Assembly: GCA_963701965.1 (NCBI GenBank)
Contig: OY969695.1
Span: 3,904,001-3,968,000 of the forward strand
Source: an uncultured Gemmatimonadales bacterium
GTDB lineage: Bacteria > Gemmatimonadota > Gemmatimonadetes > Gemmatimonadales > Gemmatimonadaceae
Reading direction: 5' to 3'
DNA: 64,000 nucleotides
A program made the position numbers and the translations under genes. This document shows, piece by piece, positions 10,018 to 47,154 of this stretch. The stretch's first letter is position 1; each line of letters starts with the position of its first letter. The notes below the pieces were generated by a model. It was not told the origin of the DNA and ran no database searches. It worked only from the letters and a program-made list of their open reading frames with translations.

Positions 10018-10359
10018 GTGCTCGCTCCCGTACCCCCGCTTTTCGCTTCCTGGACGACCGGGGTGGCGATGCGCGCGATGCGCCCGCGCTCGATGATGAG
10101 CCGGGACTCGCCCGACTTGATCGTGATGCGATCCTGGTCGCTGGCGGCCCCGTCGGCGTTCAGCGATTTGATGTGCACGATCTCGCCAATGATCCCGCCG
10201 GCGGTGACGATTTCATCGCCCTTCTTCACGGCGCGGATCGCCGCGTCGTGCTTCTTGCGCTGCTGCTGTTGCGGGCGCAGGAGCACGAAGTAAAAGAATG
10301 GCGAAGATCGCCGCGTACATGATGAGTTGCGGCGCGATCGGATTGGACGCAGAAGTCAT
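10014..10359 (-). CDS. yajC: Preprotein translocase subunit YajC (apparent +1 frameshift at about 10297)
   Basis: ATG 10359 overlaps tgt stop: MTSASNPIAPQLIMYAAIFAI, one extra base, then FYFVLLRPQQQQRK...KGDEIVTAGGIIG. Confidence 0.9.
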
Positions 10360-11489
10360 AGTGAGTGTTCGTAGCGGTCGAGCCAGCGCTCGGCGAAGCA
10401 GCGAAAGGTCCCCGTGGTCACGGCCGCGCGGGCGGACCGGACGAGCGACAGCAGGAAATGTACATTGTGCAGCGAGAGAAGGCGCGGCCCCAGCATCTCA
10501 TCGGATACGAACAGGTGCCGCAAGTACCCGCGCGAGAATCGCCGGCACGTCGGGCAATGGCAGTCCGGGTCGATCGGCCCCGTATCGGTCCGGAGCTCCG
10601 CGTTGCGCACGTTGACGCGCCCATCGTGCGTGAACGCCGTCCCGTTGCGCCCCATCCGGGTCGGGGCGACGCAATCGAACAGATCGATCCCGCGAGCGAT
10701 CCCGGCCAGCAAGTCCTCGGGAAAGCCGACGCCCATCAGGTACCGGGGCCGGTCGCGCGGGACCACCTCTTCCAGTGTATCCAGGACGTCATACATGACA
10801 GGCTTCGCCTCGCCGACGGACAGCCCTCCAATGCCGTAGCCCGGCCAGTCGGCCAGGTCTCTGACCGCTGCCGCCGCTCCGCGGCGCAGCGCCGCATGCG
10901 TGCCGCCCTGAAGCACGGGAAACAGCGCTTGGGTGAGAGGGGGGTCGTAGCCGCCGAGTTGCCCGAACGCGTCGCGGCATCGCGCCAACCAACGCACGCT
11001 CCGCTCGGAGGCTTCGCGGGCGAGCGCCAGGTCCGCCCCGCCGGGCACGACGTGATCGAATTGCATGATGACGTCGGCGCCCAGGGTGCGTTCGATCCCC
11101 ATGACCGACTCGGGCGTGAAGGTGCGGCGCGAGCCGTCGATATGACTCCGAAACTCCACGCCGTCCTCGTCGAGCGTGCGCAGGGTCTCCAAGGAGAACA
11201 CCTGAAATCCGCCTGAATCCGTCAGAATCGGCCCATCCCAGGCCATGAACCAATGGAGCCCGCCCAAGGCCCGCACCACCGCTTCGCCGGGTCGCAGGTG
11301 CAGGTGATAGGCGTTCGCCAGCAGCATGCTGGCGCCGGCCGCCGTCAACTCCGCGGGGTCGAGCGCCTTGACGGTGCCGAGCGTGCCGACGGGCATGAAC
11401 GCGGGCGTCGCCACGGCACCGTGCGGGGTCGCAAACGTCCCCGCCCGCGCCGCGCCGTCGCGGGCCTCAATGGCGAAGGTAAACGTCAC
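10356..11489 (-). CDS. tgt: tRNA-guanine transglycosylase
   Basis: TPAFMPVGT, TDSGGFQVFSL, YLMGVG, DCVAPTR, Zn motif CHCPTC; GTG overlaps queA stop. Confidence 0.96.
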   Translation of the reverse strand: MTFTFAIEARDGAARAGTFATPHGAVATPAFMPVGTLGTVKALDPAELTAAGASMLLANAYHLHLRPGEAVVRALGGLHWFMAWDGPILTDSGGFQVFSLETLRTLDEDGVEFRSHIDGSRRTFTPESVMGIERTLGADVIMQFDHVVPGGADLALAREASERSVRWLARCRDAFGQLGGYDPPLTQALFPVLQGGTHAALRRGAAAAVRDLADWPGYGIGGLSVGEAKPVMYDVLDTLEEVVPRDRPRYLMGVGFPEDLLAGIARGIDLFDCVAPTRMGRNGTAFTHDGRVNVRNAELRTDTGPIDPDCHCPTCRRFSRGYLRHLFVSDEMLGPRLLSLHNVHFLLSLVRSARAAVTTGTFRCFAERWLDRYEHSL

Positions 11490-12508
11490 ACGATCGCCAT
11501 GGCGTCGCCGTAGGAGTAGAACCGGTATCCCGCGGCGACGGCGTCGGCGTAGGCGCGCATCGTCAGATCGTAACCCGCGAGCGCGGCGACCAGCATCAGG
11601 AGAGTCGAGCGCGGGAGATGAAAGTTCGTGATGAGCTTGTCCACGACCCGCCAGCGGTAGGGCGGCCGGATGAAGAGACGCGTCTCTCCGGGGCCGGGGC
11701 CCGTGGCGCTTTCCAGCGTGCGCGCCGTCGTCGTTCCCACGGCCCACACCGCCGCGCCCCGGGCTTTGGCGCCGTCGATCGCGGCGAGCGTCTCCGGCGG
11801 GATGAAGTACTGCTCTTCATGCATCGCGTGGTCGGCGGGGTCGTCGGTCTCCACCGGCTTGAACGTCCCCGCGCCCACATGGAGCACGATCTCGGCGCGT
11901 TCGACGCCTCGCCGCGCGAGCGCGTCGAGTAGCGCCGGCGTAAAGTGTAAGCCAGCCGTCGGCGCCGCGACGGAGCCGTCCTCTCGCGCGTAGACCGTTT
12001 GATAGCGCGTACGGTCTTCCTCGCACGGCGCCCGCGTGATATACGGCGGCAACGGGACCGCACCATAGCGCTCCAGCGCCGCGGGCGCGGCGAGCGTCGT
12101 GTGCAATCGCACGATCCGGGTGCGCCGGTCCGTGACGCTTTCGATCTCGACGTCGAGATCGGGCGCCACGTGTACCATTCGGCCGGCGTGCAGTTTGCCG
12201 CCGGGATGGACCAGCGCCTCGAAGCGGGAGGCGTCGATCTGCCGCAGCAGGAAGACCTCGGCCGGGGCGCCCGAATCGCGGCGTCCGAGGAGGCGCGCGC
12301 GAATGACGCGGGTGGTGTTGACGATCAAGAGATCGCCGGGCGCCAGGAGATCGGGCAACTCGCGAAATGCCCGGTGCCCAATCGTCCCCCGCGACCGGTC
12401 GACGACCATCAGGCGGCTCGCGTCGCGCGGTTCGACGGGGGTCTGGGCAATACGCTCCGGCGGTAGCGCGTAGTCGTAGTCGGCCGTGCGGGTCCCGTCA
12501 GCCGTCAG
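11486..12508 (-). CDS. queA: S-adenosylmethionine:tRNA ribosyltransferase-isomerase (probable CTG start)
   Basis: [15 protein letters not shown] lies upstream of the listed ORF start; [33 protein letters not shown]. Confidence 0.95.
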
Positions 12509-13533
12509 AACAACTCCGACTGGGCGCGCGGATCGGCCGACACCGTGTACCCGAAGTGACGCAACGCCAAGGCCGTGGCTTGCCGGCCCCGCGCCGTCCG
12601 CTGCAAGAACCCGTTCAACACCAGAAACGGCTCGTACACCTCTTCGATGGTCTCGGCATCCTCGCCGACCGCCGCCGCCACCGTGCCCAGTCCCACCGGC
12701 CCACCGCCGAACTTGTCGATGATGGTCTTGAGGATTCGCGCGTCCATGTCGTCGAGCCCCAGCTGGTCGACGTCCAACATCGCCAGCGCATCGGCGGCCA
12801 CCGCCTGGGTGATGCGGCCATCGGCGCGAATCTGCGCATAGTCGCGCACGCGGCGCAGCAAGCGATTGGCGACGCGGGGCGTGCCGCGCGACCGGCGCGC
12901 GATCTCGTGCGCGCCGCCGGGTTCGATCGGCACCTCCAGCACGTCGGCGGTGCGCCGCACGATGTGCTCCAGATCGGCGTCGGGGTAGTAGTTGAGTCGG
13001 AGCTCGATACCGAACCGGGCCTTGAGCGGCGCCGTCATCATCCCCAGCCGCGTCGTCGCGCCGACGAGCGTGAACGGCTCGATCTGCATCGGCATCGTGC
13101 GCGCGTGGGGCCCGTCCGACAGGCGGATCTCGAACTTGAAGTCCTCCATGGCCGGGTACAGAAACTCTTCGATGATCGGCCGCAACCGGTGGATCTCGTC
13201 GATAAACAGGACATCGCGCTCGCGCAGATTGCTCAGCGTGCTGACGAGATCCAATGGCTTTTCGATCGTGGGGCCGGACTTGATGTAGATGTTCGCGCCC
13301 AGCTCACGGGCGATCAGCTCGGCCAGGGTCGTCTTGCCGAGGCCCGGTGGCCCATGGAACAGCGTATGGTCGAGCGGCTCCTGCCGCGCCAGAGCCGCGT
13401 CAATGCCGATCCGTAAGGCGTCCTTCGCCTTCTGCTGTCCGATGAACTCCGCCAGCCGCCGCGGACGCAACGACAGCTCGACGACTCCCTCGTCGGGGAG
13501 CTCCTGCGGCGTGGTGATCTCGGCGCGCGCCAT
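12505..13533 (-). CDS. ruvB: Holliday junction helicase RuvB
   Basis: [40 protein letters not shown]. Confidence 0.98.
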
Positions 13534-13570
13534 GGCACTCGAATATAAACCGAAGCGACGCGAAGCGGTT

Positions 13571-14752
13571 CTATGTCCGCTGGCCGACCTCCAGTCCGGC
13601 CAGGCGCTCCGCCGCCCGCTCCAGCGTCTCGCGCCGTTTGCAGAACGCGAACCGCACGATCGACCGTCCCAGCGTCTTGTCGTGGAAAAAGCTGGAGCCG
13701 GGCACCGACGCCACGCCGCCTTCGCGGGCCAGCCAGGTCGCGAAGGTGGTGTCGTCGTCCGACGACAGGGCCGAGAAGTCCGCCATGATGTAATAGGCGC
13801 CCGCTGGCTCCGTGAACGCGAAGCCGGCCGCGCGCAACGCGGCGGTCAGGACGCCGCGCCGCGCGCGGTAGTCGTTCGCCATATGGTTGAAGTAGTCCGC
13901 GTCGAACGCCAGGCCGACCGCGCCGGCAGCCTGCAGCGGCGCCGGCGCGCCGACCGTCAGGAAATCGTGGATTTTCCGGATCGCGTCCGTGGCCCGGCGC
14001 GGCGCGATGACGTAGCCCAACCGCCATCCCGTGCAGCTGAACGTCTTGGAGAGCCCGGAGATGGTCACCGTCCGCTCGCGCATCCCGTCGAAGGTCGCCA
14101 GCGGGTGGTGGTGCCCGCTGTACAGGATGTGTTCGTAGATCTCGTCCGTGAACGCCCACACATCGTGCTCCTGGCACAGCGCCGCGATCACCGCCAACTC
14201 ATCGCGCGTGAACACCCGTCCGCTGGGATTGTGCGGGGTGTTGACGACGATGGCTTTCGTGCGCGGCGAGAACGCGGCCCGCAACCGGTCGAGGTCCAGG
14301 CGCCAATCGGGAGGCTCGAGCGGAACGAAGACCGGCTTGGCGCCGGCCAGGATCGCATCCGGTCCGTAGTTCTCGTAGAACGGCTCGAAGACGATGACCT
14401 CGTCCCCGGGATCGATCATGGCCAGAAACGTGGCCGCCATGGCTTCCGTCGCGCCGCACGTGACGGTGATCTCCGTGTCGGGGTCGACCGGCATGTCATA
14501 CCACCGGCGGTACTTCTCGGCGATCGCCAGCCGGAGCGCCGAGGCGCCCCAGGTGATCGCGTACTGGTTGATGTCCCCGTGAATCGCCGCGCACGCCGCG
14601 TCCTTCATGGGTGCCGGCATCGGAAAATCCGGAAATCCCTGCGCCAGGTTGATCGCGCCGTAGCGCTGCGCGACCCGCGTCATCTCGCGGATCACGGACT
14701 CCGAGAACGTGCCGGCGCGTTGCGCGTGCACGGCGCTGCCCGCATTGCTCAC
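13571..14752 (-). CDS. PLP-dependent class I/II aminotransferase (YbdL/kynurenine aminotransferase-like)
   Basis: [43 protein letters not shown]. Confidence 0.9.
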
Positions 14753-15330
14753 GACGATCCCCCCGCCAAGGTCTTGATGGCTTGTCTCAGTTTTTCCGCC
14801 GTTGTCCCGCCGGTCGAAGCCCGCACCGCCCGTTCGGCATCCGCGCGCGCGTAGCCCAGCGATACCAGGCCACGAATGGCGTCGTCGAATGGCCCGTCGC
14901 CGCGCGGCGGCGCGCTCACGACGACGAGATCGTCCAATTTATCGGCGAGATCGAGGACGATCTGCTCGGCTTTCTTTCGTCCCACCCGCGGCACGGTCTG
15001 CAGCGTGGCGACATCCTTTTCCCGGATGACGCGGACCAGCCGGTCGGCAGTCAGCGAGGACAGCATGGCCAGGGCCAGGGCCGGCCCGACGCCCTTTGCG
15101 CCCAACAGTGCGCGAAAGACCGTCCGGTCGGCGGCCGTCGCGAACCCGTACAGCTGCCAGGCGTCTTCCTTCACCACCAGATGGGTGAACAGGGCGACGT
15201 CCTCGCCGACGGCCGGCAGCGTTTCGGCCACGCCGAGCGGCACGGCGACCTCGTACCCGAGGCCGGCGGCCACGATCTCGACGCGTTCGATGTCCTTCGC
15301 CACCAGGCGGCCCGCGATGCGCGCGATCAT
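14749..15330 (-). CDS. ruvA: Holliday junction binding protein RuvA
   Basis: MIARIAG, GLGYEV, LYGF, HhH motifs GVGPALAL and RVGRKKA, LVSLGY. Confidence 0.95.
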   Translation of the reverse strand: MIARIAGRLVAKDIERVEIVAAGLGYEVAVPLGVAETLPAVGEDVALFTHLVVKEDAWQLYGFATAADRTVFRALLGAKGVGPALALAMLSSLTADRLVRVIREKDVATLQTVPRVGRKKAEQIVLDLADKLDDLVVVSAPPRGDGPFDDAIRGLVSLGYARADAERAVRASTGGTTAEKLRQAIKTLAGGSS

Positions 15331-15803
15331 GCGCGCAGGCACCCGGTGAGCGCGGCCGCGACCCCGTCCGACGCGTCGGACGGTTGGGGGGCGCTCTCGA
15401 GGCGGAGGAGCCGCATGATCATCACCTGGACTTGCTCCTTGGTGGCATTGCCGGTGCCGGTGACGGCCTTCTTGATCTCCCGCGGCGGAAACTCCTGCAC
15501 GACGAGGCCGGCCTGCGCACCCGCGAGCAGGATGACCCCTCGCGCATGTCCGAGAACGACGGTGGTACGGACGTTCTTCGCGTAGAACACATCCTCGACC
15601 GCCAGCGCTTGCGGCGCGTGGCGGTCGATCAACGCGCGCACGCCCTCGTAGATGTCCCGGAGCCGCGTGGGCAGCAATGCGCTGGACGACGTACGGATCA
15701 CGCCGCACTCGACGAGCGAAGGCATGCTGGCCGGCGGGCCATCGCGCCGCACGACACCGTACCCGGTGACAGCCGTGCCGGGATCGAGCCCCAAGACGAT
15801 CAC
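15327..15803 (-). CDS. ruvC: Holliday junction resolvase
   Basis: LGLDPG, VEDVF, LGHARGV, GNATKEQV, DASDG. Confidence 0.96.
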   Translation of the reverse strand: MIVLGLDPGTAVTGYGVVRRDGPPASMPSLVECGVIRTSSSALLPTRLRDIYEGVRALIDRHAPQALAVEDVFYAKNVRTTVVLGHARGVILLAGAQAGLVVQEFPPREIKKAVTGTGNATKEQVQVMIMRLLRLESAPQPSDASDGVAAALTGCLRA

Positions 15804-15822
15804 CGGCCGGCAGTCGATGGGA

Positions 15823-16566
15823 CTAGGCGCCGGCCAAGTCCGGCACGTCCATATCGAAGTTCGCCTCGACTTTTTGCACGTCGTCGAGGTCTTCGAGCTC
15901 CTCGAGCAGTTTGAGCAGCGACTCGGCGGTCTTGCCTTCGACGCGCACGGTGTTCTTGGGCACCCACGACACCTCGGCGCCCTGGGTCTGGATTCCCCGC
16001 GCCTCCAATGCCGATTTGACGTTGACGAGGGTCGAAGGATCGGTCGTCACGATGTACTGATCGCCTTCCCGCTGCACATCCTCGGCTCCGGCGTCGAGCG
16101 CGGCCTCGTAGGTCGCGTCTTCCTCGTGCGCCGCCGCCTCGATGGCGATCTGCCCTTTGCGATCGAACATCCAGGCCACCGAGTTGGTGGCGCCCAGGTT
16201 GCCCCCGCCGCGGGACAGCTTGTGCCGGACTTCGGCGACAGTGCGCGTCGCGTTGTCGGTGACCGCCTGAATGATCAGGGCCACGCCTCCGGGTCCAAAG
16301 CCCTCGTACATGACGTCGGTGTAGTCGACGCCCTCGAGCTCTCCCGTTCCCTTCTTGACGGCCCGCTCGATGTTGTCTTTGGGCATCGACGCCGCCCGGG
16401 CGCTTTCGATCGCCGTCCTGAGCCGCGGGTTTCCGGCGGGATCGCCGCCCCCCTGCTTGGCGGCGATCGTGATCTCACGAATCAGCTTCGTGAAGTGGGC
16501 CCCGCGCTTGGCGTCGGCCGCCGCCTTGTAGTGCTTGATCTGCTTCCACTTACTGTGCCCGGCCAT
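15823..16566 (-). CDS. yebC: YebC/PmpR family protein
   Basis: MAGHSKW, NPRLR, YEGFGPGG, EDLDDVQ. Confidence 0.96.
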   Translation of the reverse strand: MAGHSKWKQIKHYKAAADAKRGAHFTKLIREITIAAKQGGGDPAGNPRLRTAIESARAASMPKDNIERAVKKGTGELEGVDYTDVMYEGFGPGGVALIIQAVTDNATRTVAEVRHKLSRGGGNLGATNSVAWMFDRKGQIAIEAAAHEEDATYEAALDAGAEDVQREGDQYIVTTDPSTLVNVKSALEARGIQTQGAEVSWVPKNTVRVEGKTAESLLKLLEELEDLDDVQKVEANFDMDVPDLAGA

Positions 16567-16573
16567 TCTTGAA

Positions 16574-17410
16574 CTATAACAGATCCTCGAACCGCATCCA
16601 CTGTTTGTAGAAGTACAGGTCGACGTACCCGGTCTGCCCCCCGCGGTTCTTCAAGGCGGAGAGCTCCGTGGCTCCTTCCACCGCCTGTCCACCGCCGTAC
16701 ATCTCCTCCCGAAAGAGGCCGAGGACGATATCGGCGTGCTGTTTGACCGCCTGATGCGGGCCGAAATCATCGAGCGTAGGGCGCGGGTCCGGCCGATGGC
16801 GCTCGAACCCCGGCAAGTGCGCGCTCACCAGCAGGACCAACCCCAAGTCCAGCGCCAGCGCCTTGAGCGGCCGGAGCGCGGCCTCGCTTTCGGCCAACCC
16901 TTGCAACGCATCGATGACGACGAGCCGCGTCCCCGGCACGGCGCGCACGGCCTCGGTCAGCGCGCCGAGATCCAATGGCAGGCGGTCGACAATGGTCGCC
17001 ACATCGCGGAGGCGCAGGGACGCCGCACCGGCGCCGGCCCGCGTGACGTCATCCAAAGCCCCGCGCCGCAGATCATCGACTCGCGCCCGGCCCTCCATGG
17101 CCAGCATGCGTTCATGGAGCCGATCCGGCGTCATCTCCGCCGACAGAAACCGGACGGCGTGCCCTCCGGCCGCCGCGTTCAAGGCCACGGAGAGGGCGAA
17201 AGCCGACTTGCCGCTGCCAATGTCGCCGCCGAGGACCACGAGGTCGCCACTGCGGAGGCCGCCGCCGAGGAGCCGGTCGACGCTCGGGAAGCCCGTGGGG
17301 ATGGTATCGGCGGGCGGGGCTCCGTCGGCCAGCGCGTCGATCCGGCGCATAAGCTGGGAGAGGGGGGAGATGTCGGGCGGTCGGGTCACGTGTGGTAGAC
17401 GAAGATCCAC
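16574..17410 (-). CDS. DnaB-like helicase, C-terminal RecA-type motor domain only (start uncertain, possibly GTG about 17389)
   Basis: IPTGFPSVDRLLGGGLRSGDL, Walker A GDIGSGKS, SAEM, VIDALQ, QHADIV, KNRGG; no N-terminal domain. Confidence 0.8.
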   Translation of the reverse strand: MDLRLPHVTRPPDISPLSQLMRRIDALADGAPPADTIPTGFPSVDRLLGGGLRSGDLVVLGGDIGSGKSAFALSVALNAAAGGHAVRFLSAEMTPDRLHERMLAMEGRARVDDLRRGALDDVTRAGAGAASLRLRDVATIVDRLPLDLGALTEAVRAVPGTRLVVIDALQGLAESEAALRPLKALALDLGLVLLVSAHLPGFERHRPDPRPTLDDFGPHQAVKQHADIVLGLFREEMYGGGQAVEGATELSALKNRGGQTGYVDLYFYKQWMRFEDLL

Positions 17411-17435
17411 CCCTAGGTGTTTTGTTTTTGCGGGG

Positions 17436-18995
17436 ATGAGCCGCCGGCTCCAGATTGGGCCGGTGCCCGCCGCGCCCTCTCCCTACAAGCCCGTTCCCGG
17501 GCCGGCGGACCGTGTCACGTTCTTTACCATGCAGCGCCGCCACCGGCGGGCGAGCTGGCGCTTCTCGGCGCTGGCCATTGCCGCGGTAGTTCTGACGGGC
17601 CTGCCGCTCAGCATCATCATCACGCCGCTCCTCTACGCCATCGTGTTGTTGGTGAGCGCGGGGGCGAACGCGATCCACCCGGGCGCGATCCCTCCCCGAT
17701 TTTGGGATGTGGCGCAGACGCTGCCGGCGATCGTGCCCCACACGATGGCGCTCCTGGGCGGCAAGTCCCAGCAGGTGCCGCTCCGCGAGATGTTCGTGGT
17801 TGGCGGCCTGCTGGTCGCGCCGGGCGCGCTTCTGCTGCTGGCGTTCTGGACGATGATCCGGGTGGTGTTTCACCGGGCCGGGGTCGGGGGCGTCCTGCTC
17901 ACCCTCGGCGCGCGCGATCCCGATCTCAACGACTTCGAGGAGCGCCAGCTCATGAACCTCGTCGAGGAGATGGCGATCGCGGCCGGAGTGCCGCCGCCCC
18001 GCGTCATGCTGATCGACCGCGGCGCGGCCGACGGCGCCGCCAATGCCGCGGCGGTGGGCTGGTCGATCGACGATGCCACCGTCGTCGTCACCCGACCCTT
18101 GCTCGACTCCCTGGAGCGGGATGAGACGCAGGCGGTCATGGGCCGGCTCATCGGCGCCATCGGCAACGGCGATCTCAAGATCGCGCTGATTATCCTCTCG
18201 ATCTATCAGGCCGTTGGTGTGGTGAGCCTGCTGCTCAACGCCGTGTTCGGGTTCCGCGCCTGGCGCACGCTCTTGCGATTCTTCCGGCTCGCGCTCTGGC
18301 CCCACCAGGCGGCCGAGCAGGACGCGGTCATGTCGGCGCTGGCGCGCGCGGCCAGCGAGGATCGGGACGTCGAAGCGTTCACGGCCCGCCAGCATCGCGG
18401 CGGATGTCTGTCGGTGCTGGCGCTGCCGCTCGTGCCCATCGAGTTGTCCGCGATGTCGATCAACGTCATCGTCTCGATGTCGACGTCGCTCTTCGTCGGC
18501 CAACTGATCGGCGCCATGTGGAGGCGCCGGCAGCTGTTGGCCGATGCCACCGCCGTGCAGTTGACGCGCAACCCGGACGGCCTGGCGACCGCGCTGGAGC
18601 GACTCGGTCGCATGCCCGTTGCCGTGCCCAAAGCGGCGCCCGTGGCGCATCTCTTCGCCACGTGGTCGGGACCCGCCGATGACTCCGTGTCCCGCTACAT
18701 GTTGGTGAAAACCGATCAGCGCCTCGCCAAGCTGCGGCAGATGGGCGCGCGCATCAACCTGACGTCGCGGAAGACATCGCTGCTCGGTCGGGTGCTGGTC
18801 CTCCTGTTCGTCGCGCCGTTCGTCGTGCTCACGGCGGTCGCGATGGCGGCGGCGTTTGTCGTCATGATGGGTCTCGACCTGCTCTTCATGCTCGTGTTGC
18901 TCGCTGCGCTCGCCGCCCTCGCCCATGCCGCGGCCGTATACGGGCCCCGGCTCCCCGCGATGCTCCACGCGCTCGCGCGGCGGTTCGTGCGTTAG
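17436..18995 (+). CDS. HtpX/M48-like membrane protein lacking the zinc-binding residues
   Basis: ERQLMNLVEEMAIAAGVPPPRV, NAAAVG, ADATAVQLTRNPDGLATAL; HEXXH position reads RLIGA. Confidence 0.8.
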   Translation: MSRRLQIGPVPAAPSPYKPVPGPADRVTFFTMQRRHRRASWRFSALAIAAVVLTGLPLSIIITPLLYAIVLLVSAGANAIHPGAIPPRFWDVAQTLPAIVPHTMALLGGKSQQVPLREMFVVGGLLVAPGALLLLAFWTMIRVVFHRAGVGGVLLTLGARDPDLNDFEERQLMNLVEEMAIAAGVPPPRVMLIDRGAADGAANAAAVGWSIDDATVVVTRPLLDSLERDETQAVMGRLIGAIGNGDLKIALIILSIYQAVGVVSLLLNAVFGFRAWRTLLRFFRLALWPHQAAEQDAVMSALARAASEDRDVEAFTARQHRGGCLSVLALPLVPIELSAMSINVIVSMSTSLFVGQLIGAMWRRRQLLADATAVQLTRNPDGLATALERLGRMPVAVPKAAPVAHLFATWSGPADDSVSRYMLVKTDQRLAKLRQMGARINLTSRKTSLLGRVLVLLFVAPFVVLTAVAMAAAFVVMMGLDLLFMLVLLAALAALAHAAAVYGPRLPAMLHALARRFVR

Positions 18996-19399
18996 CCTTC
19001 GAGATCCGCGAGCAAGCGCTCTAGCTCAGCCCGGCTCGGGGCGTCGAGGCCGCGTTGTGCCGCGTCGATGACGGCGCGGAGCGCGGTCTGAACGGCGGGC
19101 AGATCGCCATTGCCGGTCGCGTCGGCGAGCCGGGCAAACGGCGCGCGCATGGCGGCCGGCAGCGTCAGAGCGGAGAGCCAATGGCGGGCCGCCGTAGCGC
19201 GCGCCAAACGCGCGGGAGCCGCGAGCGCGTTCGGGGGTAGGACACCACTGACCAATCGCGCCGTGGCGAACGCGGCCAACGCGACTTCGCGATCGCCGCC
19301 AATCTGCCCGCGGCCGGCGAGCGCGGCCAACGCCGGAAACCGAAACGGCGTCTCGTGCAAGGCATACGGCGGGCGTGGGTGGTGGGAGTGCGCGAACAC
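18992..19399 (-). CDS. Hypothetical Ala-rich helical protein
   Basis: Fills the gap between genes; TACATT 6 nt before GTG; PPYAL...FRFPALAALAGR...GGDREVALA. Confidence 0.6.
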   Translation of the reverse strand: MFAHSHHPRPPYALHETPFRFPALAALAGRGQIGGDREVALAAFATARLVSGVLPPNALAAPARLARATAARHWLSALTLPAAMRAPFARLADATGNGDLPAVQTALRAVIDAAQRGLDAPSRAELERLLADLEG

Positions 19400-19438
19400 A
19401 TGACGAATGTAGAACGAACGGGTACATTGCGCAGTACG

Positions 19439-22889: not shown

Positions 22890-22905
22890 AGTCCAACCGA
22901 TCGTG

Positions 22906-34295: not shown

Positions 34296-34401
34296 CTCCC
34301 GAGAATGTCGCGTATCTCGAAGCGGCGTACATCATCGCCGCGGTGATCTATGGTCTGTATGCGCTCAGCATCGGTGGCGCGGACGGCGCTTTCGGCGGTG
34401 A
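34292..34401 (+). CDS. ccmD: CcmD-like small membrane protein (apparent 1-nt deletion at about 34372)
   Basis: ATGA-coupled to ccmC; MTPENVAYLEAAYIIAAVIYGLYALSI; restoring one T gives WWRGRRFRR-stop overlapping the next GTG. Confidence 0.7.
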
Positions 34402-36837: not shown

Positions 36838-36846
36838 GTTTCGACC

Positions 36847-37830
36847 ATGATCGTGCCGACCGTCCGGCCGCGCCGCCTGCGGCGTTCCGCGGCGCTCCGA
36901 CGCCTGGTGCGCGAGACGCATCTCGACGCCGCGCAGCTCGTCCTGCCCGTTTTCGTGCGCCTGGGCGCGAACGTCCGCCAGCCCGTGGCCTCGATGCCCG
37001 GCGTCGCCCAGACGTCGGTCGACGAGATGCTGCGGGACGCGAGCGCCGCGGCCGATGCCGGCGTGGGCGGTGTGATCCTGTTCGGGCTGCCCGAGTCGAA
37101 GGACGCGGTGGGGTCCGAGGCGTGGGACGAGCACGGCGCGGTGCAGCAAAGCGTGCGGGCTCTCAAGCGGGAGTTTCCCGAGCTCGTCGTGATCACCGAC
37201 GTGTGTCTGTGCGAGTATACCTCCCACGGCCACTGTGGCGTGCTCCGCGACGGGAACGTCGACAACGACGCCACGCTAGCCTTGCTGGCCCGGGCCGCGC
37301 TCTCGCATGCCGAGGCGGGAGCGGACATCGTGGCTCCCAGCGACATGATGGATGGCCGCATTGCCGCGATTCGCGAGGCGCTCGATGCGTCGGGCCACAC
37401 CGATACGGTCCTCTTGAGCTACGCCGCCAAGTACGCCTCGGCGTTTTACGGTCCGTTCCGCGAAGCCGCCGAGTCCACGCCGCAGACCGGCGATCGCCGC
37501 GGGTACCAGATGGACGCCGCCAACGGCGATGAGGCGCTCCGCGAAGTCGCGCTCGACATTGCGCAGGGCGCCGACGCCATCATGGTCAAGCCCGCCGGAC
37601 CCTATCTCGACATCGTGCGGCGCGTCAAAGACGCCACCGGGTACCCCGTCGCCGCCTATCAGGTGAGCGGCGAGTACGCCATGCTGTGCGCGGCCGCCGA
37701 GCGGGGGTGGCTCGATTGCGATCGCGCCATGATGGAGTCGTTGATCGGCATTCGGCGCGCGGGCGCCGATTTCATTCTGACCTATTTCGCCACGACGGCC
37801 GCGCGGCTGATCCGGCAGGGGTGGGAGTAA
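36847..37830 (+). CDS. hemB: Porphobilinogen synthase (Zn type)
   Basis: [41 protein letters not shown]. Confidence 0.97.
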
Positions 37831-37831
37831 C

Positions 37832-38867
37832 ATGCGGTATCGCACGTTCCCGGGGACCGGCGTCACGGTCAGCGAGATCGGGTTCGGCAACTGGACGACG
37901 GCGACCGGCTGGTGGGGCGAGCACGACGATGCCTCGGCCGTCGCGCTGCATCGCCAGGCTCTGGACGACCACGGGATTACGTTCTTCGACACCGCCGATG
38001 CCTACGGCAACGGACGCGGTGAACGCCAACTCGCCGAAGCGTTTCGCGGCCGCCGCCCGGACGTCGTCTACGCCACGAAGATCGGGTACGACATTTATGA
38101 CGCCGAGGCGCTGCGCGCCCGGCGGGGCCAGTCCGAGCTGCCGATGCGGACGGACCCCGCGTATCTGCGTCATGCGGTCGAGCAGTGTTTGGGCCGGCTC
38201 GAGACCGACTACATTGACGTGCTGCAGATTCACAACGTGAAGATGGAGCACGTGCGCGACGCCCAGCTGTGGGACACGCTGCGCACGCTCAAGGCCGAGG
38301 GGAAGATCCGGGTGTGGGGCGCCGCGTTCGGTCCCGCGATCGGTTGGCTCTACGAGGCCGTCGAGCTGTGCGAGCGGGAGACGGACATCGGGATGATCCA
38401 GATGATCTGGAACGTGCTCGAGCAGCACCCCGGCACGGCGATGATCGACGCCGCCCGTCACACCGCGCCGGAGTGCGCGTTCACCGTGCGCGTGCCCCAC
38501 GCGTCGGGGATGCTCGAGGGGAAATACACCGAGGACACGGTGTTCCCGGAGAACGACCATCGGCGTCATCGGCCGCGCTCGTGGCTGATCAACGGCCTGC
38601 AGAAGATCCGGACGCTCGATTTTCTGACGACCGACCGGACGCTGGGGCAGGCCTCGTTGGGCCTGGCTCCTGCGCGAGCCATTGGTCGTGTCGGCGTTGC
38701 CGAACATTGACGACGCCGGGCAGCTCGCCGAGTTCGCGGCGGCGGCCGATCAGCCGGCGTTGTCCCCGGCGCAGCTCCAGCACGTGGCGGCGCTGGCCGA
38801 GAACAATTTCGGGGTGACGGAGCCGCCGATGGCGTACAAGGGCACCATGCAGCGGGCCGGCGTGTGA
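37832..38867 (+). CDS. Aldo/keto reductase (apparent +1 frameshift at about 38660)
   Basis: FFDTADAYG, ATK, LETDYIDVLQIH; removing one G of GGG 38659-61 continues ASLAWLLREPLVVSALPNI to the stop at 38867. Confidence 0.85.
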
Positions 38868-40550
38868 AAGGCTTCGCTCTCGGTGCGGCCCTCGTTCTGG
38901 CGGCCTGCGCTCCGCGCTCCGACGGGTATGATCTGATCATTGCCGGTGGGCACGTCGTGGACGGCACGGGGAATCCGTGGTTTACGGGCGACGTGGCCAT
39001 TCGCGGGGACCGCATTGTCCGCGTCGCGCCAGCCGGCGTCCTGGCCGGCGCGCCGGCGGCGCGGCGGATCGACGCCACCGGTCTGGTCGTCGCGCCGGGC
39101 ATCATCGACATCCAGGGCCAGTCCGATTCGGCCTTTCTCCTGGGCGATGGCCGGGTCGTCAGCAAGGTGACCCAAGGCATCACCACGGAGATCCTGGGCG
39201 AAGGCGACACGCCGGCGCCCGCGAATGCCCGGACCCTGGCGCTCGATGCCGCGAACGACACGACCATGGCCCGCGTGGACGCCGGGTTTGCCGGCACGCA
39301 TGGCTTCGATCGCTGGCTCACGGCCATGGGTCAGCACGGCATCTCCGGAGAACGTGGGCTCGTTCGTCGGCGCGGCCACGATCCGCAAGTATGGCAAGGG
39401 GGCCGACACGGGCGCGGCGACGCCGGCGCAGCTCGACACCATGCAGGCCGCCGTGCGGCGCGCGATGGTCGACGGCGCCTTCGGCCTCGGGAGCGCCTTG
39501 ATCTATCCGCCGGGCGCGTACGCGTCGACGGACGAGCTCATCGCCGAAGCCAAGGCGTCGTCCCCGTATCACGGCGTGTACATCACGCACATGCGGTCCG
39601 AAGGTGATCATTTGCTGGACGCCGTGGCCGAGGCGATGCGCATTGGTCGCGAAGGGAGCGTCCCGGTCGAGATCTATCACCTCAAGGCCGCCGGCGTCCG
39701 CAACTGGCCGCTCATGACAAAGGTCATCGCGGCCATCGACTCGGCCCGCGCCGCGGGACAGGACATCGGCGCCGACATGTATCCGTACGAAGCCGGAGCC
39801 ACCGCGCTCGTCGCCTGCCTGCCGCCCTGGAGCGCCGCGGGCGACAGCACGCTCGCCAACATCGCCGATCCGGCCACGCGGAAACGCATCACGGCGGACC
39901 TCTTGAACACGCACACGGCGTGGGAGAGCCTCTGCCAGCTGGCCACACCCCAAGGCGTGATGGTGGTGGGTCTCCGCGCGCCGGCCGACCAGCCGTACGA
40001 AGGGCTCCGCCTCGCCGAGATCGCGACCCGCGAGCACACGACGTGGACGGAGGCGCTCATGAACGTCGTGGCCCGCGAGAAGGGGCTGGCCGGGGCCGAA
40101 TTCTTCATCGCCAGCGAGAAGAACATCACGCTGCAGATGCAGCAGCCGTGGCTCAAGTTCGGCACGGACGCCGACGGCACGGACCCGGATTCGCTCAAAG
40201 GCCTGGCCCACCCCCGGAGCTACGGCGCGTATCCGCGCATCCTCGGCCGCTACGTGCGCGACCAGCACGTGCTCGGGCTGGAAGACGCGGTGCGCAAGAT
40301 GACGTCGGCGGTCGCCGAACGGCTGTCGATCTTCGACCGCGGCACGCTCCGCGAAGGGGCCTACGCGGACGTCATCGTCTTTGATCCGGCCACCGTCATC
40401 GACCGGGCCACGTACGACAAGCCGAATCAGATCTCGGTTGGCATGCGCGAGGTGTTGGTGAATGGCGTCGAGGTCGTGCGGGACGGCAAGCACACGGGCG
40501 CCAAGCCCGGCCGCGTCGTGCGCGGACCGGGCTACACTCCGCAGGCCTGA
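38864..40550 (+). CDS. N-acyl-D-amino-acid deacylase family lipoprotein (apparent +1 frameshift at about 39345)
   Basis: Lipobox LAAC, VVDGTG, QGITT, LIYPPG, THMRSE, HPRSYG, ADVIVFD; split across two ORFs. Confidence 0.85.
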
Positions 40551-40553
40551 CCG

Positions 40554-42646
40554 TTAGCGGGCGGCCGCGCGCTCCGACGTTCCCAGGTGCCGGTCGAAGT
40601 ACTCGGCGGCCGCGTTGAGCACCCGCACCCAACTCCGATAGAGGAGCAGATCGTGCACCTCATTGGGGATGATCATCTGCTCGAAATCGATGCCGTGCGC
40701 GCGGAGGCCCTCGATCAGCTCGGGCGCTTGCGCATACGGCACGTTGCGATCGTCATCGGCCTGGATCACGAGCACCGGTGAGCGCCAGTCCTTGATCGAG
40801 GCCATGGCCGAGGACTGCCAGGCCATGCGCGCGGGAGCGACCGTGGTGTCCGTGGGCGGCGGGAAGAGCATTGCCCGCCAATCGTGCACACCCGCGTAGT
40901 CCACGCCGGCGGCGTACAGATCGGAGAAGCGCGCCAGCGCCAAGGCGGTCATCAGCCCTCCGTAGCTCGCGCCCCACACGCCGAGCTTTCCCGGGTCGAC
41001 GTCCGCGCGGGTGCGGAGATAGAGGCCCGCGCCCTGGATGTCGTTGGCCTCGCTGGAGCCCGCGGGACCGAAGTCCGGTGGCCGGCGGAAGTTCAAGCCG
41101 TAGCCGATGCCGCCGCGATAGTTCACCGAGAGCACGACGTAGCCCCGGCTCGCCAGGTACTGATTCATGGCGTACATGTAGCTGTAGGCATCCATTCGGT
41201 GCCATCCCAGGAGCATTTGCCGGATGGGGCCCCCGTGGAAAAACACGATGGCCGGGTGTCGCGCGGCCGGTCCGTTCGGCACGAACAGTTGCCCGTGGAT
41301 CATGAGGCCGTCCGCCGACGAGAAGACCACCTGCTGCGGCACCACCAGCTTCGGCGCCGGGAAATCGGCCGGGATCGCGTCACTCGCCAGGTCGGTGATC
41401 TGGCCATTCGACGTCACGATCGCGACGTGCATCGGGCGTCGCGCATCGGACCGCAGGATCGCGGCGGCTTTGCCGTCGCTGATCCCGGCCGGATACGTCT
41501 CGATCCCCTGTCCTGGCGTCAACTCCGCCGGAGCGCCGCCCGATAGCGCGACCCGCCACACATGCTGGCGGTCGATGTCGCCGGCATTGCCGGCATAGAG
41601 CATGGCCGACCGGTCGGCCGTCATTGCCGCGGCGAAAATCTCGCACTCACCGCTGGTGAGCGCGACCGGCGCGCCGCCCCGCGCGGAAATCGCGTACAGC
41701 TGGAGCCAGCCCGTGCGCTCCCACGGGAACACAATGCGGTCGCCGGCGCCCCACGCCAGCTGCTGCTCGGACTGCAGGGGCTGAAAGATGCTGCCGGCCT
41801 GTTCGCCGGCGTGCCACAGCTCGTGCCCCTGACCCGTGGCCGCATCGGCGATCCAGATCGACCAGGGTCGCCCGGTGCGCGACTGCAGGAAGAAATCCTC
41901 GTGACCGACCGGTACGCGTACGAAGGCGAGGCGCGTCCCATCGGGCGACCACTCCGGGTGCGCGTCGCGGTCGACGCTGGGCGCCATCCAGACGACGGAC
42001 TTCTGTGCCACGTCGTAGACGCCGACGAGACTATGGTCGTTGCGCTGGCTCACAAACGCGAGGCGCGCCCCGTCCGGCGACCACGCCAACGAGAGCATGT
42101 GTCCCTTCTCGACGATGAGCGCCTCCGCCTTGCCACTGCCGTCCAGGTGCGCGGCCCAGATTTGCCCCTGGGCGAGATACGCGACCAGGTCCCCCTTGGG
42201 CGACACGGCGGGTGCGCGGCCGTCGCCGAGCTTCCTCGGCGTCGGATCCGAGACGGCAGCCGTCCAGAATGCTCTGGTCAATGTCGCCTTTGGGTGAGCT
42301 CAGGAGGTTCGTGCGGGTCCCGGCACCCAAGCTCCCGCGCACGTAGATCACCCGCTCGCCATCCGCGCTCCACGCCAGGTCACCGATCTCCTGGCCGTCA
42401 TCTCCGCTGTACGCGGTCAGGGCGCGGCCGTGATACGATCCATCGGCGGACGGCTCGGCGATCCAGACATTGCGGCTGCCTTTGGCGTCGAACACCCAGG
42501 CCACGCGGTTCTTGGCCGGTGCGGCGATGAGATCCGACGGGAACGGGGCGCTCAGCACCTGATCGATGGTGAATCCACGATCCTGCCCCGCGGCGATCGC
42601 TGGGGTCAACAGGACGCCGATAGCGAACCATTCTCGCGAGCTTCAT
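40554..42646 (-). CDS. S9 family serine peptidase with beta-propeller (two apparent frameshifts, about 42631 and 42269)
   Basis: Signal peptide after repair, WSPDG repeats, HGGP, GASYGG, DDRNV, EVH. Confidence 0.85.
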
Positions 42647-43765
42647 GTGAGCATCTCCTGGCGTACGGTCAGGTTCTCGATGCGATCGGCATCCACGGTC
42701 ACACCGAGACCGGGTCGATCGAGTGGTACGTGCACCATTCCTTCGGCGTCCATCGTCCACTCCGGCGTGACGACGTCACGTTCCCAATATCGCGCGCTGG
42801 GACTCAGGTCGCCGGGCAGTGAAAAATTGGGCAATGAGGCCAGCGCCACGTTGTACGCCCGCCCAATGCCGCTCTCCAGCATGCCGCCGCACCACACCGG
42901 GATGTCCGAGCGCTGACACAGATCATGAATCGCGCGCGCGGCGGCGAAGCCGCCCACGCGGCCGGGCTTGATATTGACAATGCGGCCGCTGCCGAGGGTG
43001 ATCATGTCCTCGGCGCGGTCGAGGCTCGTGATCGACTCGTCGAGGCACAGGCGCGTCCGCAGGCGCCGTTGGAGCGCGGCGTGCCGCACCAGATCGTCCT
43101 GGCCAAGCGGTTGCTCGATCATCAGGAGATTGAACGCGTCCAGCTCCGCCAGGTGATCCGCGTCGCCAATGGTGTAGGCCGAGTTGGCGTCGACCATGAT
43201 GTCGGCCTGGGGCCCAAGCGCGTGGCGAACGGCGGCCACGTAGGCGAGATCTTTGCCCGGCGCGATCTTGAGTTTGATCTTCTGGTAGTGCGCGTCGCGC
43301 GCGGCGCACGCGCGCGCGACCAAGGCGTCGGGCGTGGCTTGGATGCCGAGGGAAATGCCCGTGACGACGCGGTCGCGGGTGCCGCCCAGGAGACGAGAGA
43401 GGGGCACGTCCGCGCGCAGCGCGGCGAGAGCCCAGGCGCCCATCTCCACCGTGGCCTTCGCCATGTTGTGCCCGCGGAAGTCGCGATCGAGCGCGACCGA
43501 TACGTGCGCAGGGTCGGGAAACGCGGTGTGGAGGACGCGGGGCGCGATCCATTCGCGGATCGCGTACCACGCCGTGTCGATCGTCTCCGCCGTGTACATT
43601 CGGTTGGTCGAACGCGACGCATTCGGCCCAGACCGAGGCGCCGTCGCCATCGGCGATCTCCAGCACGAGAATGCGGCGCTCGCTGACGACGCCGCACGAG
43701 ATGCGGAATGGTTCCTTGAGCGCGAGGCGGATCTCGCGGAGGGCGAGCTGTTCGATCTGGAACAT
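42643..43765 (-). CDS. o-succinylbenzoate synthase / N-succinylamino acid racemase (apparent frameshift at about 43599)
   Basis: KIKLK, VDAN, IEQP, LDES, NIKPGRVGG, WCGGMLESGIGR, PGDLS. Confidence 0.88.
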
Positions 43766-43770
43766 GAGCG

Positions 43771-44548
43771 TCAGGTTCGGGACAGCAGGTAGTACGCGTG
43801 TTGGGTCGCCTCGTCCCGGAGCAGGGACTCGACGCGGAAACCGTGGGCCAGCGTCCATTGGAACGCCGGGCGCGTGCGGGTGCGCCAGGCGGCCGCCGCA
43901 GGCGCGTCGGCGCGGAGGACGGCGCCAATGTCGAGGGGGATGGCGATGCGGACGTGCGTGAGGCCATCCAACGCCGGGTTGTCCACCGGCTCGGGACCGA
44001 CGAGCGGCGCATCGGCATCGGTGGCCGAGGCGCGCCGGGGGCGGGGGGCGCCCGTGAGGTCCCAGGAGACGATGAGGCGGTCCGTGTCGTTCAGCCCTTG
44101 GAAGAGCGCCGAGTGTGCGGCACCGTACATGTTCGGCACGTACTCGACGACGTCGACGCCGAGGCGATTCAGATTCAGGTGGGCGTTCTTGGCCTGGAGT
44201 GGGTCGAACGTCCAGTCAGATGCGCCGGACGCCGAGCGTGCACAGCACCTGGCGCTGGTATTCCTTGAGCTGTCGCCCGATACCGCGATTGCGCGCCGTC
44301 TCGCGGACGCCGAGCTGGTGGGACCAGTGGACGATCTCGCCGCGCTCGACGCCGGTGAGGCCGAAGATGAACCCGAGGAGCGTACCGTCGGTGTCGAAGG
44401 CGCCGGCGGCAATGCCGCCGACCTTCTGCACGATCTTGAGAATCACCGTGGGGACGACGTCCGAGTAGTCCGCGCCCCACACCGCCTGCTGCAGGGCGAC
44501 GCAGGCGAGCTGGTCCTGGGTCGTTTCCAGCGGGCGGATGATCGTCAC
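43771..44548 (-). CDS. GNAT N-acyl(succinyl)transferase (apparent frameshift at about 44217)
   Basis: LQQAVWG, WSHQLGV, GIGRQLK, then WTFDPLQAKNAHLN..LG, NMYG, TDRL. Confidence 0.82.
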
Positions 44549-44589
44549 GGCGTGCGTGCCGCTGTGAAGGTGGCTTGACGGGGAGCATC

Positions 44590-44608
44590 GCTGTATACAG
44601 CAAGTATA
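44590..44608. promoter_or_regulatory. Putative GntR operator next to a minus-strand -10 box
   Basis: Perfect palindrome GCTGTATACAGC (44590-44601); TATACT on minus strand 44608-44603; divergent from the GntR gene. Confidence 0.6.
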
Positions 44609-44661
44609 CCTGGAAGGCCGCCGTTTAGCCGATATTATACGGTATCCCTTCCCGTTACCCG

Positions 44662-45393
44662 ATGCCGAGTCGCTCAACAATCCGCACATTGGCGGCTCAT
44701 AAGCCGGGTCGTGGCGATCGGACGGCGTACGCGTATACGCAACTGAGGGAGATGATCGTGCATGGCCGGCTCGCGCCGGGCATGCGGGTCATCGAGAACA
44801 ATGTGGCCGCGCTCCTGGACGTCAGTCGCACCCCCGTCCGGAGCGCGCTCCATCGACTGGAGCAAGAGGGCTACATTGTGAGCGCCGGTTGGGACAACGA
44901 GCGCCGGCTGATGGTGGCGCCAATGACCGAAGCCAATGTGCGCGAGCTCTTTCAGATCATCGGCGAGGTCGAAGGTCTCGCGGCGCGCCTGGCGGCGAAA
45001 CGGCCGCCCAAGCAACGGGCGGCCCTCAGCGCCCGCCTGCGGAAGATCAATGAGGAGCTGGCGGTCATCGAGCGGGCGGCGCGTCTGGACCCGGTCCGTT
45101 ACTTCCAGCTCGACCTGACATTCCACCGGACGTACGTCGAGGCCGGCGCCGGCCCGCGGCTCCTGGCGCTGCATGACGCGATCAAGCCACAGTCGGAACG
45201 CTACAACCACCTGTACACGACCGCCCTGACGGCGGCCGCCAAGATGTCGGTCGTCGAGCACGAGGCGATCATCAAGGCGATCGAGGCCGGAAAGGCCCCG
45301 GCGGCCCACGTGGCCGTGCAGCGGAACTGGTGGCACGCCGCGGCGCGCCTGGGGAGTGTGATCGCGTCGCTCAATGAGCAGGGGCCGTGGTAA
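44662..45393 (+). CDS. GntR family (FCD) transcriptional regulator
   Basis: LAPGMRV, VSRTPVRSAL wHTH; FHRT, EHEAII. Confidence 0.92.
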   Translation: MPSRSTIRTLAAHKPGRGDRTAYAYTQLREMIVHGRLAPGMRVIENNVAALLDVSRTPVRSALHRLEQEGYIVSAGWDNERRLMVAPMTEANVRELFQIIGEVEGLAARLAAKRPPKQRAALSARLRKINEELAVIERAARLDPVRYFQLDLTFHRTYVEAGAGPRLLALHDAIKPQSERYNHLYTTALTAAAKMSVVEHEAIIKAIEAGKAPAAHVAVQRNWWHAAARLGSVIASLNEQGPW

Positions 45394-46644
45394 TCAACCC
45401 GCTCGCTGAAAGACCAAGGACGCGTTGATCCCGCCGAACCCGAACGAATTGGAGAGCACGTAGTCGACGCGCCGTGGCCGGCCGGTCGCGGGGATGTAAT
45501 CGAGATCGCACGAAGCGTCGGCCTGTTCCAGATTGATCGTGGGCGGCAGCCACTCATGCTGCAGGCTGAGCGCGCAGATCGCTGCCTCGATGGCACCCGA
45601 TGCGCCGAGGGCATGACCGTAATAGCCCTTGGTGCCACTCACCGGCATGCGATACGCCCAGTCGCCGAACACCTGCTTGATCGCCGCCGTCTCCGTCGGG
45701 TCGTTGAGTGGCGTCGAGCTCCCATGCGCATTCACGTACCCGATCTCCTGGGGCGTGACCTCGGCGTCTCGAAGGGCCAGGCGAATCGAGCGGGCCGCCT
45801 GCTCTCCGGAGGGGAGCGGCGCCGTCATGTGATACGCATCATTGGTCGTGCCGTAGCCAATGATCTCGGCGTAGATCGGCGCGCCGCGGGCCACCGCGCG
45901 CGTGTACTCTTCCAGCACCAGCACCACGGCCGCCTCGCCCATGACGAACCCATCGCGGTCCTTGTCGAACGGTCGCGACGCATGCGTGGGGTCGTCGTTC
46001 CGCGTCGACATCGCCCGGATGAGCGCGAACGCGCCGTAGCAGAGTGGGGCCAGCGGCGTCTCGGCGGCGCCGCACAGCATGATGTCGGCGTATCCATCGC
46101 GGATCTGCCGAAAGGCCTCGCCGACCGCCATCGTCCCCGACGCGCAACTCATCGCGTTCGTCGAGTTGGGCCCCGAGATGCCGAACTCGATCGCGATGTT
46201 GCAGCTCGACGCGCCGCCGTACACGGCGAGCGCGACGATCGGGTCGACGGCGCGCAGGCCGGCGCTCAGGAAGCGCCCCAGTTGCTCCTCGGCGAACGCG
46301 ACGCCGCCCAACGCCGATCCCATCATGGCGCCGGCCCGGTCGCGATCCTCGCGCGCCAGGTCGAGTCCCGAGTCGGCCAGCGCCATGCGGGCCGCGACGA
46401 CGGAAAACTGCCCAAACCGGTCCAGTCGCTTGGCCCGCTTCGACTCGACGTGGTCACTGGCCACGAAATCCCGGACTTCGGCGGCCGTCTTGCTGCGGAA
46501 CGGCGTGGCATCGAACCGGGTGACCGGCCCGACGGCCGATCGCTCGCCGCGGAGACCCTCCCACAAACCGTCCCGCGTGAGGCCAATTGGTGTCACGGGG
46601 CCGATGCCCGTGACGGCCACGCGGCGGCGGCGGCCGTTATTCAT
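45394..46644 (-). CDS. Beta-ketoacyl-ACP synthase II-like ketosynthase
   Basis: VAVTGIG, MSCASG (Cys), NAHGSST and GHALGASG (His, His), SNSFGFGG. Confidence 0.9.
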   Translation of the reverse strand: MNNGRRRRVAVTGIGPVTPIGLTRDGLWEGLRGERSAVGPVTRFDATPFRSKTAAEVRDFVASDHVESKRAKRLDRFGQFSVVAARMALADSGLDLAREDRDRAGAMMGSALGGVAFAEEQLGRFLSAGLRAVDPIVALAVYGGASSCNIAIEFGISGPNSTNAMSCASGTMAVGEAFRQIRDGYADIMLCGAAETPLAPLCYGAFALIRAMSTRNDDPTHASRPFDKDRDGFVMGEAAVVLVLEEYTRAVARGAPIYAEIIGYGTTNDAYHMTAPLPSGEQAARSIRLALRDAEVTPQEIGYVNAHGSSTPLNDPTETAAIKQVFGDWAYRMPVSGTKGYYGHALGASGAIEAAICALSLQHEWLPPTINLEQADASCDLDYIPATGRPRRVDYVLSNSFGFGGINASLVFQRAG

Positions 46645-47154
46645 GCGCCCTCTCCGCGCTCAGCCACAGCGGCCAGGCCCGCCAGAGTGCGCGATGCGAT
46701 GCCGTGCACGAAGATCGGTCCGACCACGGCGCGCGCGGCCACCGGGCCGATGACCGGCCACGGCGGCCCGTTCCAGACGTGCGTGATGCGTACGTGCGTG
46801 TGGCGCGAGTCGGCCAGCGGTTCAAACGACCAGAGAACGTCCATGCCCGTGGTAATACCCTCAATGTGACGGAACCGGATGGAGACGTCGAGATCGTCTC
46901 CACCCTCTCCCCGACACGTTTTCATTCTCAGATACCCACCACGTTGGCCAATTAATCCATCCGCCCCCGAATGGACGGTTCGCGGACATCTCTACAATGT
47001 CCCGGTTGCGAAACCGGACGAACCGATAATGCGGCAGCAGAGCCGGCCAACGTTCAACGTCTCGAGCTAGTGCGAATATTCGTGCCCGCGGCGCGCGAAC
47101 GACCAATTCGTCGATGACCGTCATGCGACGGTCGGTAGGCATGGGTCCGATCAT
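46641..47154 (-). CDS. SRPBCC/polyketide cyclase-like protein (apparent +1 frameshift at about 46925)
   Basis: IFALARDVERWPALLPHY, VEMSANR, WWVSE then MKT..IRFRHIEGITTGMDVLWSF; ATGA-coupled at both ends. Confidence 0.78.

Follow-up and report, generated by a model that had tools for sequence, protein, structure and literature searches.

The window studied here is a 64,000-nucleotide stretch (G000:C1:3,904,001-3,968,000, on a single 5.12-Mb contig) of G000, the genome of an uncultured Gemmatimonadales bacterium, and the question it raises is why conserved genes such as yajC are broken in it by single-base frameshifts. An earlier note on this DNA had proposed that the frameshifts are read errors at a modified, non-palindromic motif containing CATC/GATG, with the modifying enzyme encoded outside the window. 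Named homologues place the window in the Gemmatimonadaceae. We followed up this proposal in the assemblies of G000 and its relatives, on which all tests were run, and found that it fits the genome-wide enrichment of two words at frameshifts, both controls, and a private error motif in a close relative, G003. We conclude with good confidence that the frameshifts are long-read (probably nanopore) consensus errors arising from a probable one-strand N6-methyladenine (m6A) mark, AG(m6A)TG, and that the affected genes are probably unbroken in the living bacterium.

Frameshifts and the error word

Frameshifts were located by homology by aligning to G000 1,948 proteins taken from 2.39 Mb of the ~5.7 Mb of G003; DNA identity between G000 and the same-genus genomes is ~72%. 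Best matches with an identity of 45% or more numbered 1,461 and covered 1.43 Mb; chance values came from 300 random placements. The test located 97 distinct frameshifts in G000, and 60 of them fell in the CATCT/AGATG or CATCGAG/CTCGATG classes, compared with 3.0 by chance. By class, the counts were as follows.

CATTCT: 34 observed, 0.33 by chance
CATCT with an extra base just after it: 12 observed, 0.78 by chance
CATCT minus one base: 7 observed, 1.88 by chance
CATTCGAG: 7 observed, 0.02 by chance
Other CATTC: 2 observed, 1.49 by chance
Near CATCT: 1 observed, 0.63 by chance
No motif: 34 observed, 91.9 by chance

A second, independent caller, a six-frame Viterbi codon model with a simulated recall of 0.72, retrieved 70 of the 97 homology frameshifts; its calls numbered 730 in total (many of them false or inside the foreign segment described below). 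The G000 contig shows ~115 frameshift calls per Mb. The top enriched words at these calls were AGAATG/CATTCT and their extensions, with CATTCT beside 97 of the 730 calls (4.5 expected) and CATTCGAG at 12 (0.4 expected). The commonest error in G000 is AGATG read as AGAATG. In its native DNA there were 93 errors and 6,122 coding CATCT sites left intact (1.5%), with no gene-strand bias (errors 60:36, background 3596:2527). The count of words at frameshifts against background thus gave the enrichment that the earlier note had expected, while the 4-mer it had named proved too broad: the codon-model caller found CATTCA 2 times against 3.5 expected and CATTCC 11 times against 5.4. Errors at GATC, CCWGG, CATG, CATCA and CATCC were at or near background in G000, and there were small excesses at CTCGAG (30 vs 14) and CATCAG (11 vs 4 for +1, 11 vs 2 for -1). 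CATTC and CATCT were not outliers in whole-genome k-mer bias, where the errors are too rare to register. The error motif thus comprises two words, CATCT/AGATG and CATCGAG/CTCGATG; CATC is only their shared core, and most CATC words are unaffected.

Within the window, all eight motif strings quoted in the earlier note were found where it had placed them. Seven of these frameshifts are confirmed against relatives' sequences, and the eighth (S9 peptidase, 42629) is read from the reading frame only. The sites are listed below, followed by two off-motif frameshifts.

10296..10300, minus strand: yajC, +1 frameshift at AGAATG (true word AGATG/CATCT); relative with a one-base gap
34369..34372, plus strand: small open reading frame labelled ccmD (a name from the earlier note only), -1, CATC where the relative has CATCT; DNA alignment
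39340..39346, plus strand: amidohydrolase (aminoacylase), +1 in or just after CATCTCC; DNA alignment, protein homology, Pfam
42267..42271, minus strand: S9 peptidase, +1 at CATTCTGG, the context most prone to error; blastx, Pfam S9
42629..42633, minus strand: S9 peptidase signal peptide, probable +1 at GAGAATGG; three-frame reading only, without an aligned relative
43597..43601, minus strand: gene labelled NSAR (Pfam gave no confirmation), +1 at CCGAATG (true CCGATG); homology, DNA alignment
44216..44222, minus strand: gene labelled GNAT (Pfam gave no confirmation), +1 at most 3 nt after CATCT; homology, DNA alignment
46923..46927, minus strand: gene labelled SRPBCC (Pfam gave no confirmation), +1, CATTCT where the relatives have CATCT; DNA alignment
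38659..38661, plus strand: aldo/keto reductase, +1 at GGG, off-motif; homology, DNA alignment, Pfam
5350..5356, minus strand: additional -1 frameshift, off-motif, upstream of RsmB domains; homology, DNA alignment

The yajC site reads AAAAGAATGG in G000 against AAAAG-ATCAGG in the relative (DNA alignment), and the downstream piece of the gene corresponds to positions 16-56 of Pfam YajC. One T is missing from the ccmD-labelled frame (CATC-GG against CATCTGG in the relative), the aminoacylase site shows an identical one-base gap in 5 aligned loci (two of which are the same stretch of one genome), and the SRPBCC site reads TTCATTCTC against TTCAT-CTC, with a one-base gap in 2 aligned loci. In the S9 peptidase gene, the blastx match with the G003 protein switches from frame -2 to frame -3 at 42267, where the shift is placed only within ~6 nt of CATTCT because the local DNA alignment is poor; at 42629 an ATG overlapping the upstream stop enters the signal-peptide frame only across GAGAATGG. 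Pfam confirms yajC, the S9 peptidase, the aldo/keto reductase and the amidohydrolase. As the earlier note had it, the NSAR site is the sole non-CATCT case among the eight: it is a GATG word (CCGATG, not AGATG) and lies outside both main error motifs. The aldo/keto reductase had also been correctly set apart as lying off CATC, and the -1 shift near 5353 had been missed. The density of motif frameshifts in the window is higher than the G000 genome average, and Rfam gave no match inside the window.

Errors in relatives, in foreign DNA and at a second word

Extrapolation from these counts gives an estimated 125 (AGAATG type) to ~200 (all motif classes) G000 genes falsely broken. Were the indels instead real, produced in vivo by motif-targeted mutation, ~200 genes would be broken in the cell (the same extrapolation), a reading that the earlier note had placed second and that we regard as highly improbable. 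The genes affected are conserved ones, e.g. yajC, and the relatives' orthologues are intact at the same sites. The events are varied one-base changes (+1, -1) around one word, and they are found only in long-contig assemblies. Indeed, among 78 of 80 loci of relatives bearing the D12-class methyltransferase gene discussed below (two were omitted as suspected long-read records), mostly short-read, none of 1,090 CATCT sites carried an error, compared with 16.0 expected after correction for recall. The source genomes of these loci carry the D12 gene.

The second control lies on the G000 contig itself. Outside the window, G000:C1:1 to ~327,450 resembles another organism's DNA: its tetranucleotide profile is shifted (distance 1.7-4.2 against a median of 0.9), it holds a second full valS, duplicated tRNAs, and second copies, at 38-54% identity, of Pol I, FtsK, RarA, PPK, DXS and PurD (named by eye), and the junction at 327.4-328.6 kb interrupts a clpC-like gene. 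The contig looks like a chimera to which a foreign segment, betaproteobacterial by its looks, has been mis-joined. In this first 327 kb none of 418 CATCT sites carried an error, where 5.9 were expected (P 0.003), and the same segment, in the same assembly, had 562 frameshift calls per Mb, 5x the native density. Such a contig, together with the false breaks, misleads annotation and pseudogene counts.

These results bear on whether a base-caller or polisher is simply weak at AGATG, independently of any modification, which would hit any genome sequenced alike. The strong dependence of the error rate on flanking bases (CATCTGG 6.0%, CATCTTC 0 of 787) would suit such a weakness, as would the occurrence of errors in each of the three long-contig genomes that were scanned, among them G007, in which the D12 gene was not found. 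In G007, of which 400 kb of 3.8 Mb was scanned, there were 2 frameshifts at CATTCTGG against 0.12 by chance, one of them confirmed by homology. On the other side, the G007 rate is below that of G000 (2 vs 9.1 expected, P 0.006), none of the 418 sites in the foreign part of the G000 contig shows the error, and the doubled-A error also occurs at a strain-private, known m6A word in G003. We therefore consider a modification-independent weakness quite unlikely; the errors are specific to an organism or strain and not general to the run. The frameshift scans covered G000, G003, G007 and the loci, with G016 (long contigs and a D12 gene), G001, and the long-contig, D12-less G020, G026, G028 and G029 outside them; the genomes and loci scanned are related and hence non-independent samples. 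In one 11-kb locus from a 4.0-Mb contig (L199), the sole frameshift call, at ~9380, lies at GCGAATG, a GATG-derived word; this is a single case.

G003, which has Mb-size contigs, shares the errors of G000 (CATTCT 32 vs 3.9 expected, CATTCGAG 5 vs 0.55), so the motif is apparently common to at least one close relative. It also has an error word of its own, GACGTC, which is read as GAACGTC or GACGTTC 104 times against 6.1 expected; the corresponding count in G000 is background (6 vs 6.1). Clark et al. (2012, PMC3287169) report that M.AatII methylates G(m6A)CGTC, which matches G003's private word and its doubled base and is not the motif of G000. Depletion of GACGTC is seen in G003 alone (0.71 vs 0.99). 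A beta-class type II methyltransferase gene of G003 (L130:18212-19066), without a match in G000, is a candidate for these private errors; family matches of similar size occur in G001, G004 and G005. An error is seen at ~8.5% of sites of the palindrome GACGTC, compared with 0.9-1.5% for the asymmetric word, a difference that fits a two-strand mark on the former and a one-strand mark on the latter.

The probable mark

In all three words, the commonest error is the doubling of an A that follows G. Since the A doubled in G003 is the base methylated by M.AatII, the analogy points to AG(m6A)TG and CTCG(m6A)TG in the two shared words. We propose that reads of the modified strand would miscall the methyl-A position and the bases immediately 5' of it, that the miscalls would mostly double the A and sometimes gain or lose a base 1-3 nt away, and that the unmodified strand would rescue the consensus at ~98% of sites. 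Since the miscall rate varies from 0 to 6% with the flanking bases, methylation may cover a broader motif than the errors reveal, e.g. one defined by GATG as its core.

That the mark is m6A is likely also because genes for phosphorothioate, 5-methylcytosine (m5C) and deazaguanine marks were not found. No PF00145 m5C methyltransferase gene was found in G000; a family search did not find DndB, and DndD had no match over the cut-off in 31 genomes; no PAPS-reductase-family gene (DndC/SspD type) was found in G000 or G003, SspB and SspC not being searched; and no DpdA-type TGT paralogue was found in G000 with a Pfam model that may miss divergent DpdA, the single TGT match being the gene adjoining yajC. 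The 95% completeness of G000 limits these negatives. Of the kinds of modification that the earlier note had allowed, methylation is the likely one, and for phosphorothioate the genes searched for were not found.

A mark other than m6A on AGATG, namely C(m6A)TCT on the opposite strand, N4-methylcytosine (m4C), phosphorothioate or 7-deazaguanine, seems to us unlikely. In its favour, C(6mA)TCTC is a validated motif in Acinetobacter pittii (PMC11610603), the errors span positions 3-7 of CATCT, and the type III-like beta-class methyltransferase of G000 (L131) is a member of a family, Pfam N6_N4_Mtase, in which m4C writers also occur. On the other hand, CAATCT does not appear among the most enriched words, doubling of a methyl-A is the pattern of GACGTC, the gene searches just described found no DndB, DndD, PAPS-reductase-family, second TGT or m5C gene, and L131 has no match in five same-genus genomes while the motif is common to G003.

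Methylation-linked consensus errors at motifs are an established class of artefact (PMC6591954, PMC11610573, PMC11610603). In the case of Dcm (CCWGG), a motif absent from base-caller training data accounted for ~70% of nanopore consensus errors (Wick et al. 2019, PMC6591954); likewise, the motif explains most errors in G000 (60 of 97). The Dcm case differs in that it involves m5C, a near-palindrome and a known enzyme, whereas G000 has an asymmetric word, a probable m6A and candidate enzymes. Oxford Nanopore Kit 14 assemblies show strain-specific methylation-induced error motifs (Lohde et al. 2024, PMC11610573), with the contexts CARATG/CATYTG in Acinetobacter junii, CRATG-containing words in Citrobacter freundii and RACG in Klebsiella pneumoniae; the words of G000 resemble them in their purine-A core. 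With Hammerhead, a strand-specific detection of mismatches that arise on the modified strand only, C(6mA)TCTC was validated in A. pittii (PMC11610603), an asymmetric word that overlaps that of G000 (CATCT-C). In A. pittii, however, the methyl-A lies in CATCTC and causes read mismatches, whereas in G000 CATCTG errs more often than CATCTC and the A of AGATG is indicated. The only published Gemmatimonadota methylome found, that of Gemmatirosa kalamazoonensis KBS708, a member of the same family as the relatives of G000, has three m6A motifs, RGATCY, ATGCAC and CCAGN7TCA, and AGATG and CTCGATG are not among them (PMC3974934). Our literature search brought up no paper describing methylation at AGATG in Gemmatimonadota, and supplements and REBASE, outside the search, may hold one; nothing on insertion-type 6mA errors came up either.

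Several points weigh against consensus errors from AG(m6A)TG methylation as the source of the frameshifts. Both the platform and the modification are inferred, from assemblies alone. Of the 97 homology-located frameshifts, 34 are without a motif. The errors reported in PMC11610573 are A/G and C/T substitutions, and the words 'indel' and 'frameshift' occur 0 times in its text, whereas the errors of G000 are single-base indels; an excess of the corresponding G-to-A substitution was not found in G000 (CAA before ATG 0.153 vs 0.148). Among other in-frame substitution footprints, AAA before ATG was not in excess, TTG after CAT was raised, yet equally so in the short-read loci, and ATT usage was like that of G003. 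The control loci are 'mostly short-read' by their contig names and all represent one gene neighbourhood in related genomes. The two G007 cases leave room for a weak modification-independent error and slightly weaken the strain specificity, and the KBS708 methylome without AGATG counts against a family-wide mark (PMC3974934).

The analysis contributes one specific motif that can be tested, AG(m6A)TG, and names two conserved methyltransferases as candidate writers. As a tentative and on the whole doubtful proposal, we raise a one-strand AG(m6A)TG mark that is inherited vertically within a lineage of Gemmatimonadaceae and has as its writer either an orphan methyltransferase in core synteny or an order-wide methyltransferase-SNF2 pair. 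If this were true, assembly errors alone would be enough to reveal a housekeeping methylome of the Dam/CcrM kind, here on an asymmetric word.

Candidate writers

Of the modification genes that the earlier note had named, methyltransferases of the amino class were found, and Dnd/SspD-type and DpdA-type genes were not found in the searches given above. G000 has four amino-methyltransferases: a type III-like (L131), a type IIG (L132), a D12-class (L134) and a gamma-class (L160) protein. AGATG is observed at 0.83 of expectation in G000, 0.87 in G003, 0.86 in G007 and 0.93 in the foreign segment.

Two of these enzymes, both shared with relatives, together probably include the writer. It may well be the orphan D12-class methyltransferase (L134:1222-2316, G000 2,304,933-2,306,024, minus strand), an assignment that we hold plausible without going as far as calling it probable. 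All 5 relatives in the genus have the gene, as do 11 of the 18 in the family and 12 of 31 relatives overall, with matches in 239 stretches in GTDB (the methyltransferase genome tallies count G012, which is unpublished and on which no other result depends). Its synteny is conserved: of 80 loci, 73 have a CoA-transferase-like neighbour and 68 a sigma-factor-like one. The catalytic motif DPPY is invariant (9 of 9), and the protein matches PADLOC type II models, which are unnamed, along its full length; it has no PDB match by sequence. M.FokI (GGATG) and M.NlaIII (CATG) are D12-class methyltransferases, and we take the subfamily of the candidate to include enzymes for GGATG and CATG. Like these two enzymes, the candidate is of the D12 class, and an xATG target would fit. 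Unlike them, it has a single domain and stands as an orphan in conserved core synteny; judged from protein starts, none of its neighbours was recognised as a nuclease. The errors in G007, in which the D12 gene was not found, count against this enzyme and favour the gamma-class one.

It is less likely, in our estimate, that the gamma-class methyltransferase is the writer. This N6 methyltransferase is Eco57I/MmeI-like, 1,069 aa long (L160:1501-4710), and is followed by an SNF2 helicase; the pair lies at G000 ~2,258,024-2,263,452, with the methyltransferase near 2.258-2.261 Mb. It has matches in 31 of 31 genomes of the order, which is unusual for a restriction-type gene, and its motifs DPACGSG and NPPW are intact in 6 of 6. 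The pair shows a weak likeness to the DISARM DrmMI and DrmD models, and the methyltransferase has only a weak MmeI match in PDB by sequence. That some other enzyme writes the mark is a possibility to which we give still less weight.

The type III-like L131 and the type IIG L132 were set aside as writers of AGATG: neither has an orthologue-level match in five same-genus genomes, yet the motif is common to G003. Both are private to G000 within the genus, and neither has an obvious error motif of its own. L131:1000-3114 is type III Mod-like and sits in a 3.9-kb locus where a Res gene was not seen; L132:682-3150 is a single-chain HsdR_N-methyltransferase-specificity protein. L132 could be the CATCGAG writer in G000 alone, but G003 also shows that word, as counted above. 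L135, an 88-aa D12 fragment, was set aside. Finally, two PAPS-reductase-family matches lie side by side at G005:C25:14493-17160; of the six genus genomes only G005 has them, and they may belong to a phosphorothioate-type or a sulfate-assimilation cluster.

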